From a virus (lineage: Duplodnaviria > Heunggongvirae > Uroviricota > Caudoviricetes): a stretch of 5,152 nt of DNA. The notes under the pieces were generated by a model that made no database searches, was not told the origin of the DNA, and worked only from the letters and a program-made list of their open reading frames with translations. Positions within the stretch are counted from its first letter, which is position 1. Every line of letters starts with the position of its first letter. The stretch lies in IMG/VR virus record IMGVR_UViG_2706794698_000004. One strand, given 5' to 3'. This document shows positions 58 to 5,152 of this stretch, one piece after another. The position numbers and the translations under genes were made by a program.

Positions 58-966
58 TTAACTGATCGGCATTACACCACCGGGACGCGGATTCATATCT
101 TCCAGGTCGCGGCAGTCATTGGAAGAGTAAATTCCCCAGTTGATCCCGGTGGCGTAGGCTTCAAAACGGGACTTCATATCCCCGCGCAGTAACGCCCCGG
201 CGTTAAATTTGGCGTAATAAACGCCCTGCTTACTTTTTCGTACCAGTCCGGTGTTGATCCGCTGTTCGATGCGGGTCAGATACGGCACCAGTGAATAGTT
301 GATAAATCCCAGCCCCAGCTCTTCGATATTGTTGAAGGTGGCGCGATCGGTGTTCTGCACCATGTGCAACGGCACCCGGAACAGACGACAGATTTCTTCC
401 AGCTGAAACTTGCGGGTTTCCAGGAACTGACTGTCCTCGGCGTTCAGCGCCATCGACTTCCAGTCCAGCCCCATTTCCAGAATCATCGGGCGGTGAGCAT
501 TGCCAAGCCCCGTGTGACACTCCTCAAAATCTTTCTTCAGACGCTCGTAAGCATCCGGCGTGAGCTTTTGTTCCGTACGCAACACACCGGATGTCACCGC
601 ACCATTACTAAACAACCTGGCACCGTGCTCCTCGGTTGCCGCTGCCAGTGAAATGGCCTCACGCGCATACGCAATGGGATTCAGCCCGACAAGTCCATCC
701 AGCGTCAGGGTGCGCACATGCCAGATTTCATTCTGGGTCAACACATCCACGGAACCATCCGGAAACGTCACCTGATAAACCGGCTGCCACTGGCTGTTCA
801 GCTTCGGTTCCACACAGCCCGGATCTATCGGAAGAAGCTCCACCACTTCTCCCAGTGCCTTTACCTTGTAGGCGTAAAAATTCCCCCGTAGACACAGGCA
901 GACAATAACCAGCTCCCAGAATTCCTGCGGTGTCATGTAGCCATTAGGTTTTGCCGAAACCAACTT
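58..966 (-). CDS. Phage portal protein, HK97 family (C-terminal 302 aa visible; N-terminus hidden in N-run)
   Basis: Minus-strand ORF with stop TAA at 60-58. Visible translation KLVSAKPNGY...EHGARLFSNGA...NPRPGGVMPIS* has the length and character of HK97-type portal proteins (recognised from memory, no search run). In this frame a stop (TAA, 1248-1246) lies just upstream of GTG 1242-1240, so the start is at that GTG or inside the N-run; maximum length 394 aa. Confidence 0.88.
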   Translation of the reverse strand, partial: KLVSAKPNGYMTPQEFWELVIVCLCLRGNFYAYKVKALGEVVELLPIDPGCVEPKLNSQWQPVYQVTFPDGSVDVLTQNEIWHVRTLTLDGLVGLNPIAYAREAISLAAATEEHGARLFSNGAVTSGVLRTEQKLTPDAYERLKKDFEECHTGLGNAHRPMILEMGLDWKSMALNAEDSQFLETRKFQLEEICRLFRVPLHMVQNTDRATFNNIEELGLGFINYSLVPYLTRIEQRINTGLVRKSKQGVYYAKFNAGALLRGDMKSRFEAYATGINWGIYSSNDCRDLEDMNPRPGGVMPIS

Positions 967-967
967 A

Positions 968-1238
968 NNNNNNNNNNNNNNNNNNNNNNNNNNNNNNNNN
1001 NNNNNNNNNNNNNNNNNNNNNNNNNNNNNNNNNNNNNNNNNNNNNNNNNNNNNNNNNNNNNNNNNNNNNNNNNNNNNNNNNNNNNNNNNNNNNNNNNNNN
1101 NNNNNNNNNNNNNNNNNNNNNNNNNNNNNNNNNNNNNNNNNNNNNNNNNNNNNNNNNNNNNNNNNNNNNNNNNNNNNNNNNNNNNNNNNNNNNNNNNNNN
1201 NNNNNNNNNNNNNNNNNNNNNNNNNNNNNNNNNNNNNN
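968..1238. other. Run of 271 N (masked or unresolved bases); content unknown
   Basis: Directly visible as n characters; interrupts the 5' part of the portal ORF. Confidence 1.
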
Positions 1239-1241
1239 ACA

Positions 1242-1424
1242 CTATTTACCTCCGCCGACAGACTGCCGTGTACGGTCGAGATATCGCGCCACCAGCCACG
1301 ACCAGAACAGGCACAGCGCCCCGGCAACAACAAAACCCGCCGGGGGATAAATCAGCCAGGCACCATACGCCAGCAAAAGCGCACCCAGCACGCCCACCAG
1401 AGGCGCGAGAATCAGCATGATCAT
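1242..1424 (-). CDS. Small hypothetical membrane protein (60 aa, two predicted hydrophobic segments) between terminase large subunit and portal
   Basis: ATG 1424-1422 preceded by GAGGT (1433-1429) with a 4-nt spacer; stop TAG 1244-1242. Translation [60 protein letters not shown] has two hydrophobic stretches and a basic C-terminus. Sits in the same operon with 13 nt between the TerL stop and its ATG, and its stop overlaps the first possible portal start. No family recognised. Confidence 0.55.
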
Positions 1425-1428
1425 AATT

Positions 1429-1433
1429 ACCTC
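1429..1433 (-). promoter_or_regulatory. Shine-Dalgarno (GAGGT) for the 60-aa ORF, placed right after the TerL stop codon
   Basis: Minus-strand sequence TAA-CT-GAGGT-AATT-ATG read directly from coordinates 1438-1422. Confidence 0.5.
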
Positions 1434-1435
1434 AG

Positions 1436-3169
1436 TTAAAGCGAGCGGATCCCGTAGGACTCAATGTGGTCAGACAGCGTGTCTTCTTTCTCGTACAGCA
1501 TGGCTCTGCCAACCGCCATAATCAGCGCAACTGCACCATCGATTTTGTTTTCCGCCTGCTCTTTGACGGGTTTCACCACATCATCGTTACCCGGCATGTT
1601 TTTGCCGACCACGTTGCCGATACACCAGGTCATGATGGGATTGCCGTCATGATGAAAACGTCCCGATTCAATCGCTGCTTCCAGCTCTTTCATCGGATCG
1701 GACATATTGGTGAAGTTCTGGACGATAGTGACGGGATTCAGGTCTTCATCAGCAAGGTCATGTGACAACCCGGTCGCCCCGAAGGGGTCGATGGGTGACT
1801 CACTGACCGGGCTGATTTTGTTCGCCGCTTTGGCCTCCTCGAGGATGTAGCGATAATCCACCTCCGCACCATCGGTAACGGTCAGAACGCCCATTTCCAC
1901 CCATTTCTGAAAGCGTTCGGCTGTCCGTCGATCTTCATTTTTCTCGACGCTGTACACCGTGTCATACGGTACCCAGAAACGCGGGGCCACACTGTAGTAA
2001 TGCGTTTTACCGTCAATCTCGCGGGTATAAAGTCGCGCCATGCTGTTCATATCCAGCTTACGCGCCAGGTCAAAGGCCAGAATGCACGGCTGCCCCTCGA
2101 ACTGCTCAAGGGTCAGTGATTTATCCTCGCAGCTCTGCCAGCTCACCAAGTTGAAATACGCCGAACGCGCCGACACCCAGATATTGAGGTGTTTTGTTTT
2201 AAAGACGTTTGCCAGACGGGCGTTATTTTTCGCACGCTGCTGCTGACTTAACAAAAATTCGCGATAAACCGACACGCCAATATTTGGATTGGCTTTTTCC
2301 AGCACCTGCGGGCCGGTCCAGTCGTCACCTTCATCAACGGTATAGATGATCCCGAACAGTTCATCGTTAGGCACCGAGCCGTTGAGCATCTCGATGACTT
2401 CCCGCCGCTTGTCGTAGCACGGCCCCTCAATGTTGTACCCGGCGGTGGTGATGGCCCACATCAGTGGCTGACGTCGCGCCCCCATCCCGGTAAGCATTGT
2501 GGTATAAAGCGCATCGGTGGCATGCTCGTGATATTCATCAACCACGGCACAGTGGGGTGATGAACCATCACCTGGGTTGCCGATCAGCGGTTCAAACCGC
2601 GCGCCATCCTCCGGACGGTTCATGTTTGAGGCGTTAACCTCAATCCCGAACGCTTCCGTCAGCATGGGTGTGCGTTTACACATCAGTCGCGCCGGGCGAA
2701 AGACTTCCCACGCCTGTTTCTCTGTCGTGGCACCGGAATACACTTCCGCGCCAAACTCGTTATCACAGGCAAAACAATACAGGGCAACACCGGCAGAGAT
2801 TGCTGATTTGCCGTTCTTACGGGGGATTTCGGTGTACACCTCCCGGAAGCGGCGCAACCGGGTGCCTTTATTGACCCAGCCAAACGCACAGCAGATCACA
2901 AATAGCTGCCACGGCTCCAGCGTGATGGGCATCCGTTTGAATGCCCACTCCCCCTTGGTGTGCGGCAACAGCTGAATAAATTTCGCGGCCCGTTCAGCCA
3001 GGTCCTTGTCGAAGCGGTAACGAAACGACTTACTTTTTTCCGCCATCAGGTCATCAAGATGGCGCTGGCAGGCCTGAATCACAAACTGGCAGGCAACAAT
3101 CTTTCCGCGCACGACATCCCGGGCATACTGATTTGCAGCATTTACGTTGGGGTAAGATTTCCGGCTCAT
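1436..3169 (-). CDS. Terminase large subunit (HK97/Terminase_1 type ATPase-nuclease)
   Basis: 577-aa minus-strand ORF, ATG 3169-3167, stop TAA 1438-1436. Walker A-like PRKNGKS (nt 2824-2804), Walker B-like VVDEYHE, and C-terminal acidic nuclease-type motifs ([20 protein letters not shown]). Its ATG overlaps the upstream TerS stop as ATGA. Family assignment from memory of terminase architecture, not from a search. Confidence 0.93.
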
Positions 3170-3549
3170 GATTCGATAATTTTCAGAAACGGGTTAGTGG
3201 CTTTCTTCTGCCCCGCCAGGCCAATCAGACGCTGGCGGCTGCTGGGGTCGAGTCCGAGCATTGCCCCCGTGCTGCTCATCTCGGACTCCTGTTCTTTTTT
3301 GGCGGTCAGCTCCGGATTTTTGACCCTGCCGCCCATTGCACCGGTGATGGTGTTGCCCTGTATGGCAATATTTTTCACGGCACGTCGCCAGAACTCATAG
3401 GCCACGCACCACCGCTCAAGTACCGCCAGGTCAGTCACGCACAGCAGGCCCTGACCGCAGAGTTCTTTGGTTGTCAGTTGCCACATGATCGTGGCGAGAG
3501 GGAGATCTTCTTCAGCGAACCACTCTGGTGGCTCAACACCTTTGATGGG
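3166..3549 (-). CDS. Terminase small subunit, P27-like (C-terminal 127 aa visible; N-terminus hidden in N-run)
   Basis: Minus-strand frame open from the N-run to TGA 3168-3166, which overlaps the TerL ATG. Visible translation [16 protein letters not shown]...[15 protein letters not shown]...[16 protein letters not shown]...KIIES* resembles P27-family small terminases (from memory). Position directly upstream of TerL supports the call. Confidence 0.78.
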
Positions 3550-3550
3550 C

Positions 3551-3802
3551 NNNNNNNNNNNNNNNNNNNNNNNNNNNNNNNNNNNNNNNNNNNNNNNNNN
3601 NNNNNNNNNNNNNNNNNNNNNNNNNNNNNNNNNNNNNNNNNNNNNNNNNNNNNNNNNNNNNNNNNNNNNNNNNNNNNNNNNNNNNNNNNNNNNNNNNNNN
3701 NNNNNNNNNNNNNNNNNNNNNNNNNNNNNNNNNNNNNNNNNNNNNNNNNNNNNNNNNNNNNNNNNNNNNNNNNNNNNNNNNNNNNNNNNNNNNNNNNNNN
3801 NN
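3551..3802. other. Run of 252 N (masked or unresolved bases); hides the HNH 3' end, the HNH/TerS intergenic region and the TerS 5' end
   Basis: Directly visible as n characters. Confidence 1.
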
Positions 3803-4035
3803 GCCTCGCTCACCACACCGACACGCAGACACAACTGACACAGACCTTTATCGCGCTTCAGAATACGGGCACGAATCACCGTCCATTTTGAGCCATAGCC
3901 ACGCTGGTGGCGGCTCAGTCCGCGCTGGTGCTGCACCCAGCCTTCACCGCGATGTTTATCGCAGTAACCCGAACTGTCTGTGGTTGTACCTGCACATCCA
4001 CGCTTACGGCAGGCACGTGGGATTAGTGATGGCAT
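3803..4035 (-). CDS. HNH endonuclease (N-terminal 77 aa visible; C-terminus hidden in N-run)
   Basis: ATG 4035-4033 preceded by GAGGT (4044-4040) with a 4-nt spacer. Translation MPSLIPRACRKRGCAGTTTDSSGYCDKHRGEGWVQHQRGLSRHQRGYGSKWTVIRARILKRDKGLCQLCLRVGVVSE has a Cys/His zinc-knuckle (CRKRGC...YCDKH) followed by an HNH-type core (W..IRARILKRDKGLCQLC). Confidence 0.85.
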
Positions 4036-4077: not shown

Positions 4078-4356
4078 CTACTTAATGCACTGAGTGCGGA
4101 TATACTCCTGTGCCCCTTCCAGTTGCATCTGCATCGTCATCAGCCGCTCTCTGAGGGTGAAATAATCCCGTTCAGCGGTGTCTGCCAGTCGGGGGCTGGT
4201 TGCATTATCCACGCCGGAGGCGGTGGTGGCTTCACGCACTGACTGACAGACTGCTTTGATGTGCAACCGACGACGACCAGCGGCAACATCAGCGCGCAGA
4301 GTTTCATTTTCAGCTTTCGCATCAGCTAACTCCTTCGTGTATTTAGCATCGAGTGC
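4078..4356 (-). CDS. Rz: Rz i-spanin, C-terminal segment (copy B; 92 codons visible, no start codon visible, upstream part in N-run)
   Basis: Minus-strand frame reads [92 protein letters not shown] with stop TAG 4080-4078. This closely matches the C-terminal ~90 residues of lambda-type Rz as I recall it. The ORF track only reports 4078..4266 because it starts at an internal TTG. Confidence 0.8.
   Translation of the reverse strand, partial: ALDAKYTKELADAKAENETLRADVAAGRRRLHIKAVCQSVREATTASGVDNATSPRLADTAERDYFTLRERLMTMQMQLEGAQEYIRTQCIK
4140..4322 (-). CDS. Rz1: Rz1 o-spanin (outer-membrane lipoprotein), embedded in the +1 frame of the Rz C-terminal segment
   Basis: 60-aa ORF with ATG 4322-4320. 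MRKLKMKLCALMLPLVVVGC has a signal peptide with a lipobox-like VVGC, followed by a proline-rich stretch (PPPPP) and ending in ISPSESG, matching lambda-type Rz1 from memory. The embedded arrangement is canonical for Rz/Rz1. Confidence 0.85.
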   Translation of the reverse strand: MRKLKMKLCALMLPLVVVGCTSKQSVSQCVKPPPPPAWIMQPAPDWQTPLNGIISPSESG

Positions 4357-4358
4357 AT
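4304..4358. repeat. Direct repeat copy 1 (55 bp, abuts the N-run); identical to 4639-4693
   Basis: Base-by-base comparison: tcattttcagctttcgcatcagctaactccttcgtgtatttagcatcgagtgcat at both positions, offset exactly 335 bp. Identity stops at 4303 vs 4638; further left the two flanks are only partly similar. Confidence 0.95.
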
Positions 4359-4611
4359 NNNNNNNNNNNNNNNNNNNNNNNNNNNNNNNNNNNNNNNNNN
4401 NNNNNNNNNNNNNNNNNNNNNNNNNNNNNNNNNNNNNNNNNNNNNNNNNNNNNNNNNNNNNNNNNNNNNNNNNNNNNNNNNNNNNNNNNNNNNNNNNNNN
4501 NNNNNNNNNNNNNNNNNNNNNNNNNNNNNNNNNNNNNNNNNNNNNNNNNNNNNNNNNNNNNNNNNNNNNNNNNNNNNNNNNNNNNNNNNNNNNNNNNNNN
4601 NNNNNNNNNNN
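4359..4611. other. Run of 253 N (masked or unresolved bases) between the two repeat copies in the spanin locus
   Basis: Directly visible as n characters. Confidence 1.
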
Positions 4612-4612
4612 C

Positions 4613-4657
4613 CATTATCAAGCTTGCGCCGAAGAGCATCATTTTCAGCTTTCGCAT
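4613..4657 (-). CDS. Second Rz1-like o-spanin start (copy A; first 15 codons visible, remainder in N-run)
   Basis: ATG 4657-4655 is exactly 335 bp from the Rz1 ATG at 4322-4320 and lies in the +1 frame of the Rz copy A segment. Reads [15 protein letters not shown], sharing MRKLKM with Rz1 and then diverging. Only 15 residues are visible, so the call is tentative. Confidence 0.35.
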
Positions 4658-4877
4658 CAGCTAACTCCTTCGTGTATTTAGCATCGAGTGCATTAACATC
4701 ACGCTGTCTCTGCTGCATGTCAGTAATGGTTGCGTTCGCCAGCTTCAGTTCTCTTGCGTTTTTGTCGCGCTGCTCTTTGTAGGTAATGGCGTTATCACGG
4801 TAATGATTAACAGCCCATGACAGGCAGACGATGATGCAGATAACCAGAGCGGAGATAATCGCGGTGACTCTGCTCAT
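4614..4877 (-). CDS. Rz: Rz i-spanin, N-terminal segment (copy A; 88 codons visible, continues into N-run)
   Basis: ATG 4877-4875 with GGGGG 5 nt upstream; its ATG overlaps the endolysin stop as ATGA. Translation [88 protein letters not shown] has an N-terminal hydrophobic transmembrane segment and is lambda-type Rz-like up to ENDALR, then diverges. The ORF-track GTG start at 4889 (MGAAM) is rejected in favour of the conserved MSRVTAI start. Confidence 0.8.
4639..4693. repeat. Direct repeat copy 2 (55 bp); identical to 4304-4358
   Basis: See copy 1. Lies within Rz copy A codons ~62-80 and contains the second Rz1-like ATG. Confidence 0.95.
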
Positions 4878-5152
4878 TGCTGCCCCCACAAACAGACTTC
4901 ACGCTCAATCTCACGACGGGTCATCAGCCCTTTCCATTGCTTACCGCCAGCATATGTCCAGCGACGTAGCTGGTCACATGCGCCTTTGATATCGCCCTGG
5001 TTTATTTTGCGAAGAAGCGTCGATGTTCTGAAATTGCCAGCGCCCACGTTGTAAACGAACGAGTAAAGAGCGCCGCGCGTTGTTTCCGGTATATCGACTT
5101 TGATGTACGGGTTAATTTGTCTGGCGACAGTGGCAAGGTCTTTATTCAGGAG
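4874..5152 (-). CDS. R: Endolysin, phage lysozyme family (C-terminal 92 aa; 5' end outside the window)
   Basis: Minus-strand frame is open from the window edge to TGA 4876-4874. Translation [92 protein letters not shown] is recognised from memory as the C-terminus of a lambdoid lysozyme-type endolysin (phage 21 R / RrrD-like). Position immediately upstream of Rz fits the lysis cassette order. Confidence 0.85.

Follow-up and report, generated by a model that had tools for sequence, protein, structure and literature searches.

What is a 60-residue membrane ORF doing between the gene for the terminase large subunit (TerL) and the portal gene of a tailed phage, and with which of these two neighbours does it belong? 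The question was raised by a 5,152-nt stretch of viral DNA (Caudoviricetes; IMG/VR record IMGVR_UViG_2706794698_000004), hereafter called the window. A preliminary description of this DNA, made from its letters alone, left two readings side by side: a moron-type membrane protein (superinfection exclusion, holin-like or toxin-like), or a conserved uncharacterised packaging accessory protein.

The ORF, its neighbours and its identity

As read from the sequence, the ORF occupies positions 1242..1424 of the minus strand, the strand that carries all genes of the window. It starts with an ATG at 1424-1422, ends with a TAG at 1244-1242, and encodes 60 amino acids. Upstream of it lies the TerL gene (1436..3169, minus strand), which matches the Pfam families TerL_ATPase and TerL_nuclease, and upstream of TerL are the small terminase gene, an HNH gene and Rz/Rz1. 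We take the ORF at 4874-5047 as the end of a putative endolysin gene. Downstream of the small ORF is the portal gene (58..1242, minus strand; PF04860, phiP27-like), which begins with a GTG at 1242-1240 and is masked with N from 968 to 1238.

The junctions on both sides of the ORF are tight. The spacer that follows TerL, CTGAGGTAATT (1425..1435, minus strand), contains the Shine-Dalgarno sequence GAGGT at 1433-1429, separated from the ATG by the four nucleotides AATT, just as had been claimed. The gap between the TerL stop codon and the ATG, however, is 11 nt and not the 13 nt given earlier, a minor error. At the other end, the ORF reads GGC GGA GGT AAA TAG TG and runs into the portal GTG. The described TAGTG overlap is real: the G at 1242 closes the stop codon and at the same time opens the portal start codon. 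A portal Shine-Dalgarno sequence, GGAGG (1249..1253, minus strand), lies within the last codons of the ORF, 6 nt 5' of the GTG, and the in-frame TAA described upstream of the portal start is present at 1248-1246. An identical junction is annotated in K-12 and in phiP27.

Three runs of the window are masked with N (968-1238, 3551-3802 and 4359-4611; 252-271 nt each). These runs conceal the N-terminus of the portal protein, and they make the HNH and small-terminase genes (3166-4035) as well as Rz (4326-4889) appear as single long ORFs. We also observed a 64-nt direct repeat in the Rz/Rz1 region, at 4295-4358 and 4630-4693, with copies 95% identical and spaced by 335 nt. The repeat gives rise to two Rz1-like lipoprotein starts, 'MRKLKM...', in minus-strand ORFs beginning at 4322 and 4657. 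The masked run 4359-4611 falls between the two copies, so that the visible repeats alone neither confirm nor exclude a full tandem duplication.

A PHROG scan of the ORF returned matches to phrog_502, 7105 and 12448 only, and the match to phrog_502, 'membrane protein', covered residues 1-55 of 60 with an E-value of 2.8e-28. The protein was 97-98% identical to YmfR of the e14 prophage and 97% identical to database clusters. At the nucleotide level, megablast gave 98.5% identity to ymfR of the e14 prophage in K-12 MG1655, and the ymfR region was present in 1360 of 5426 complete E. coli genomes, annotated as 'ymfR: protein YmfR'. Judged by these matches, the window carries an already catalogued prophage gene: its ORF is an allele of ymfR (PHROG 502). 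Equivalents of the ORF are L37 of phiP27 ('membrane protein'), sb3 of ST64B, and an ORF in SfI, SfII, SfIV and 118970_sal3. Like the window, e14 (ymfR, b1150), phiP27 and ST64B have the order TerL-ORF-portal and a 1-nt overlap; in e14, TerL and the portal gene are truncated and ymfR is intact, whereas the head module of the window is intact. With a full-length profile match, a position between TerL and portal, and a stop codon overlapping the start of a PF04860 portal gene, the ORF belongs to the family, and the homologue search that had been suggested for it yielded, besides PHROG 502, hundreds of further members.

A length of 60 aa is not significant on its own, with 52 ORFs in the window reaching 30 aa or more. 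The PHROG 502 match, 167 homologue clusters and an in-frame pattern of substitution nevertheless show that ymfR is a genuine protein-coding gene. For the 60-codon form, 22 different nucleotide sequences gave a pooled pN/pS of 0.38 in frame, compared with 0.86 and 1.53 in the shifted frames, and pairwise dN/dS was 0.24-0.29. Similar values were obtained for the SfV-type subfamily (0.36 in frame; 1.07 and 1.56 shifted), which puts the in-frame figure at about 0.37 over the two subfamilies, and pairwise pN/pS for family members was 0.12-0.29. An opposite-strand ORF at 1268..1420 (plus strand) was rejected as a candidate gene, because the substitution pattern suits the minus-strand frame alone.

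Other searches returned little. Pfam and NCBIfam scans of the ORF gave sub-threshold chance matches only (TctB, 15 bits; TIGR03770, 11 bits). A sequence profile search of the PDB found only NMDA-receptor membrane helices (E 0.4-0.9), and Foldseek found nothing in the PDB below an E-value of 6; fold searching is of little help here, since a helical hairpin is too simple. Several records (As1, vB_EcoM-720R4, -689R6 and -606R7) label a YmfR-type ORF as 'head-tail joining protein W'. Lambda W lies between the A and B genes, and the label fits the position of the gene; family searches give it no support. We rejected an identity with lambda gpW, because the protein is almost wholly hydrophobic and neither the Pfam nor the PHROG scan gave a gpW family. 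The literature that we searched on ymfR, DUF1056, the ST64B membrane protein and small membrane ORFs between terminase and portal offered gene lists and no functional study. ymfR was a first-round match in a membrane-protein overexpression screen, not pursued there (PMC10299036), and it is listed within an e14 deletion (PMC11541549).

A predicted membrane hairpin and its relatives

The product has the two hydrophobic segments ascribed to it (residues ~2-25 and ~30-47, with 19-residue Kyte-Doolittle means of up to 2.7 and 1.8), and its tail is indeed basic, with a net charge of +2. AlphaFold2, run with an alignment of 29 sequences, placed helices at residues 2-25 and 27-57 with a pLDDT of 74. 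YmfR is thus predicted to be an inner-membrane hairpin of two helices, whose termini are both cytoplasmic and whose outer turn is very short and highly conserved. It would comprise a first transmembrane helix (residues 2-25; 1421-1350), the turn YPPAG (residues 26-30; 1349-1335), a second transmembrane helix (residues 31-47; 1334-1284) and a variable basic tail (residues 48-60; 1283-1245), all on the minus strand. The N-in/C-in orientation is suggested by the basic C-terminal boundary, by basic N-terminal extensions in longer members and by the uncharged turn.

A word-indexed search returned 167 clusters, all of about 60 aa and in Enterobacterales. A profile search of 1.84 billion cluster representatives extended this to 409 representatives at E <= 1e-3. 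Among the 150 matches listed of these 409, nearly all measured 50-70 aa, and no fusion of the ORF to a portal protein occurred among these best 150. The family shares the core G..G..L..YGAW(L)(I/V)Y(P)PAG(F/Y)I..G, in which G14, G21 and G35 are almost invariant. Conservation was highest in the outer turn and the first helix, and lowest in the tail. In four independent representatives (P0157, P0183, P0190 and P0194; 102-122 aa), two hairpins are fused in tandem, giving four helices, and such fusions are what a self-pairing unit would be expected to show.

A motif scan with one genome per species found the family in Alpha-, Beta- and Gammaproteobacteria, Geobacter, Ruminococcaceae and Micromonospora. 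The enterobacterial taxa were Escherichia, Shigella, Edwardsiella, Mangrovibacter, Serratia and Citrobacter, and the other proteobacteria were Burkholderiaceae, Rhodoferax, Reyranella, Shinella, Sphingopyxis and Lysobacterales. The remaining taxa were Geobacter, three Ruminococcaceae MAGs and one Micromonospora isolate. Two further records carry an E. coli-type ymfR region at 94-97% protein identity, namely a Bacillota-labelled MAG (L097; JAEWTL010000102.1) and the 1764-nt 'Enterococcus phage Efm 3-10' (OR844959.1); contamination or mis-binning seems a better account of both than a genuine Gram-positive host.

A protein of this shape could act on the host envelope. In that case YmfR would be a late membrane effector, holin-, antiholin- or pinholin-like or a block on a host membrane protein, which tunes lysis timing or membrane potential, and the portal junction would merely be tolerant of insertions. 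YmfR, with its small size (about 60 aa), two helices, predicted N-in/C-in topology, small-residue faces and short basic C-terminus, recalls class II holins and pinholins such as S of phage 21, and a check against the class II layout found that hydropathy, charge distribution and the AlphaFold2 hairpin agree with the predicted N-in/C-in orientation. That the outer turn and the membrane core are best conserved suggests a membrane-embedded partner, and the tandem-fused versions hint at oligomers. Furthermore, the lysis cassette of these phages is just upstream of the packaging genes, and insertions are known at the TerL/portal junction of actinophages (PMC7302621). The position of the ORF, however, is not that of a class II holin, as it lies between TerL and portal and outside the lysis cassette. 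Nor is the 'MIM' double start conserved in the family. The gene, moreover, is tied by coupling to the portal gene, and the phages concerned already possess full sets of holin, endolysin and spanin genes; separate holins were annotated or detected in phiP27 and in loci L003 and L008. An unrelated effector would also not be expected to stay joined to the portal gene across phyla, or where TerL has moved away. On this evidence, we consider an action on the host envelope rather unlikely.

Still less can be said for a component of the virion, that is, a hydrophobic peptide in the head or at the portal that aids the passage of DNA across the membrane at infection. The gene adjoins the portal gene, and hydrophobic ejection proteins exist in other phages. 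YmfR, however, is nearly all membrane helix and would insert into the membrane of the producer cell as it is made, and no virion proteome evidence for it was found in the literature searched. This role seems to us highly improbable.

Association with the portal gene

We compared 80 viral contigs with a TerL that shares 68-100% identity with that of the window. A hairpin ORF came after TerL in 74 of the 80 loci (73 by HMM and L074 by eye); five loci did not have it, and one ended before the site. The synteny comparison called for in the preliminary description thus found the ORF conserved, not sporadic, and the five loci without it fell into two related portal classes of the mEp235/Fraca type, in which the TerL stop overlaps the portal start directly.

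Within this set, the subfamily of the small ORF followed the portal cluster. Window-type portals were paired with YmfR-type ORFs, and the SfV type, whose portals share about 28% identity with those of the window type, with the 49-53-aa PHROG 7105 type. A third portal class was paired with 'ML....F.IGL.GA' ORF types, and a fourth with a 69-aa type. Pairwise identity of the ORF correlated with that of the portal (Spearman 0.78; Mantel p 5e-4), compared with a Spearman coefficient of 0.13 for ORF and TerL. The last ~20 residues of TerL (about 1439-1498 in the window) also switched with portal class, while the remaining TerL was 68-100% identical; the tail variants across loci L002-L088 were ...GIRSL, ...DLLIL, ...DVLC and ...PIMVNF. 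A mosaic breakpoint therefore lies inside the terminase gene. From these comparisons, ymfR, the portal gene and the last ~20 TerL codons form one block of the mosaic, inherited together across distant phages. By lambda gpA, we take the C-terminal tail of TerL to be its portal-docking part, which would set the ORF between two elements that work together. The co-inheritance with the portal may nonetheless be mere adjacency within a mosaic block that the conserved body of TerL bounds on the left.

The association holds over much greater distances. In all 11 distant members looked up (29-48% identity), a PF04860 portal gene came directly after the ORF, and the head modules that contain these members also encode a capsid protein of the HK97 fold and a protease of type S78 or S49. 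The portal gene adjoined the ORF in 35 of the 38 loci of the genome scan; the exceptions included one fragmented portal region followed by a protease, and one true exception. The ORF remains joined to the portal, with stop and start overlapping, down to about 27% portal identity and across phyla. In a prophage of a Reyranella MAG (L128), a 2.1-kb insert on the opposite strand parts TerL from the ORF, and the ORF overlaps the portal start anyway. These findings provide evidence, new here, that ymfR has long accompanied the portal gene and not the terminase. The cargo of the Reyranella insert (1297-3350 of L128) consists of one gene of the Usp (universal stress protein) family and one of the Fic/DOC type, the latter with an HTH. 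In another locus, a short metagenomic contig (L095), a second 60-aa ORF with no family match (24-206) lies directly upstream of the YmfR-like ORF, replacing TerL.

The same data bear on the two readings with which we began. A family under purifying selection, with near-universal synteny and tied to the portal, agrees with an accessory protein; 'packaging' is too narrow a word for it, as the gene follows the portal and head block. The moron-type reading fared worse. It would make YmfR a lysogenic-conversion protein, expressed from the prophage for superinfection exclusion or defence. Small phage membrane proteins often exclude superinfecting phages (HK97 gp15, T4 Imm), PHROGs places family 502 in the category 'moron, auxiliary metabolic gene and host takeover', and the gene is intact in the decayed e14, whose TerL and portal are truncated. 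Nevertheless, no sigma-70-like promoter or terminator was found adjoining the ORF, its GC3 of 0.67 shows no compositional break from that of its neighbours (0.65), and it is coupled on both sides. A PADLOC defence-model scan of four family members gave no match at E <= 1, a complete lysis cassette is found elsewhere in the same phages, and the distribution is syntenic and tracks portal class. In addition, ymfR of e14 rose by log2 4.5 along with other e14 genes in an SOS-induced culture (PMC10012262), and so does not look like a gene expressed in the lysogen. A moron is thus very unlikely.

By the arrangement of its start and stop codons, ymfR, a gene of the late head operon, is coupled in translation to TerL on its upstream side and to the portal gene on its downstream side. 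Of the 66 different ORF/portal junctions, 57 show an overlap of 1, 4 or 11 nt, and in the remainder the two genes are no more than 7 nt apart. In 35 of all 66, GGAG, GAGG or AGGA lies 4-18 nt upstream of the portal start, compared with 2.3% of windows inside the ORF. At the TerL/ORF junction, the family elsewhere shows gaps of 9-11 nt or overlaps of 4 or 7 nt. The otherwise variable tails often end in GG(E/D/K), KEG or similar. The conserved C-terminal Gly-Gly is explained by the portal Shine-Dalgarno sequence embedded in the last ymfR codons, and these tail-end residues are probably kept for the ribosome and not for the protein.

Such coupling could itself be the main function. ymfR would then act in cis, as a leader that sets the amount of portal per TerL or the site of portal synthesis through membrane targeting of the ribosome-mRNA complex, and the peptide itself would be of little function. 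The overlapping junctions, the portal Shine-Dalgarno sequence inside the ORF and the coupling to TerL (by a Shine-Dalgarno sequence at 9-11 nt, or by the 4- and 7-nt overlaps) all agree with this, as do the direct coupling of TerL to portal in ORF-less phages and the filling of the same slot by unrelated hairpins of the same size. On the other hand, specific residues, including G14, G21 and G35, are conserved across phyla with a pairwise pN/pS of 0.12-0.29, which exceeds what a hydrophobic leader needs. We judge a mainly cis-acting role unlikely; it overlaps with our best explanation, set out below, if membrane targeting is the key.

Small two-helix ORFs are also found in this slot outside the YmfR family. 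According to the preliminary description, HK97-type modules usually run TerL straight into portal; this holds for HK97 and the mEp235 type but not for SfV, ST64B, phiP27, phiE125, D3 and Sfi21, all of which have a small two-helix ORF between the two genes. That of phiE125, gp3, is a true family member (43 bits). The SfV-type ORFs of PHROG 7105 (49-53 aa) share with YmfR the slot, the hairpin and a G..G......G / G / AR pattern, and cross-match PHROG 502. They differ in being only about 20-30% identical to YmfR, without the YPPAG turn, and in belonging to a different portal class (~28% identical) whose start they overlap by 11 nt. In the SfV records (NC_003444 / U82619, around 2158-2658), the 53-aa hairpin ORF between TerL and portal is unannotated. 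DUF1056 (PF06341, PHROG 1142), represented by the 59-aa orf59c of Sfi21, likewise has two hydrophobic segments and lies between TerL and a PF04860 portal gene of an HK97-like head module, but orf59c is 17 nt away from the portal gene, which YmfR overlaps. Comparison of DUF1056 with YmfR by hhalign gave a probability of 0.5%, and neither the ORF nor its subfamilies matched PF06341 at E <= 1. Similarly, orf3 of Pseudomonas phage D3 (54 aa, two hydrophobic segments) occupies the same slot, and no significant HMM match to the YmfR family was found (E above 0.1). It seems that small hairpins of a similar kind came to occupy the slot on more than one occasion, or that the sequences have diverged beyond recognition.

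A possible role in starting the head at the membrane

How might a membrane hairpin serve the portal? Our best explanation, which we put forward tentatively as a possible one, is that YmfR is a late, self-associating inner-membrane hairpin that ties portal synthesis or prohead initiation to the membrane. The protein would be made late, in step with the portal, and would associate with itself in the membrane through the small-residue faces of its helices; we infer self-association from these faces, with the invariant G14, G21 and G35, and from the tandem fusions. It would then act on the portal or the head pathway. The likeliest route would be that portal synthesis, and the initiation of the portal ring or prohead, are drawn to the membrane, with YmfR as a tether or chaperone, or through SRP-type targeting of the coupled mRNA and its ribosome.

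Such a role would be akin to the membrane-bound portal initiator system of T4. T4 gene 40 is not known to be adjacent to gene 20, and gp40 has no sequence similarity to YmfR in the PHROG scan and serves a different head type. The proposed likeness is that of a phage membrane factor which starts head assembly from a portal ring at the inner membrane. In T4, assembly of the portal initiator on the membrane requires gp40 and involves contact with YidC, and gp20 with gp40/YidC is the only documented precedent for membrane-initiated portal assembly (PMC9958956).

Phages that lack the ORF may be informative in this respect. Portal proteins encoded after the ORF start directly with MF..(L/F)F..(K/R)S, while those of ORF-less phages (mEp235 type and HK97; L068, L087 and L090) carry 7-15 extra polar residues at the N-terminus, a comparison that covers few independent lineages. 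Phages with this polar extension would manage without YmfR. Several points count against an assembly role. The conserved part of YmfR is buried in the membrane, the portal is soluble, and the cytoplasmic parts are short and variable. Closely related viable phages do without ymfR: the gene is absent from relatives with a TerL at least 81% identical (mEp235, Fraca, CharmingMan) and from HK97. No such factor is known to be needed when portal-containing HK97 proheads are assembled from cloned genes, and membrane-associated head assembly in HK97-like phages was not reported in the literature searched.

The proposal could be widened. In many HK97-type phages of both Gram-negative and Gram-positive hosts, an oligomer of a portal-coupled hairpin would tether or template the portal ring, and head assembly would start at the membrane as in T4. 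This would bring together at least three or four families that are unrelated or barely related, namely YmfR/PHROG 502 with 7105, D3 orf3 and DUF1056. We regard so general a reading as doubtful. If true, it would mean that a step has been overlooked because HK97 does not have the gene and reference genomes such as that of SfV leave it unannotated.

ymfR is carried as a y-gene by about a quarter of complete E. coli genomes, and public records mislabel it ('head-tail joining protein W', or the 'moron' category) or, as for SfV, omit it. For most tailed phages, it is unsettled how exactly one portal ring is built into each procapsid, and a conserved, portal-coupled membrane protein would open that step to concrete tests in the head type that is most common. 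The finding would be ordinary if YmfR turned out to be no more than a membrane effector or a leader for coupling.
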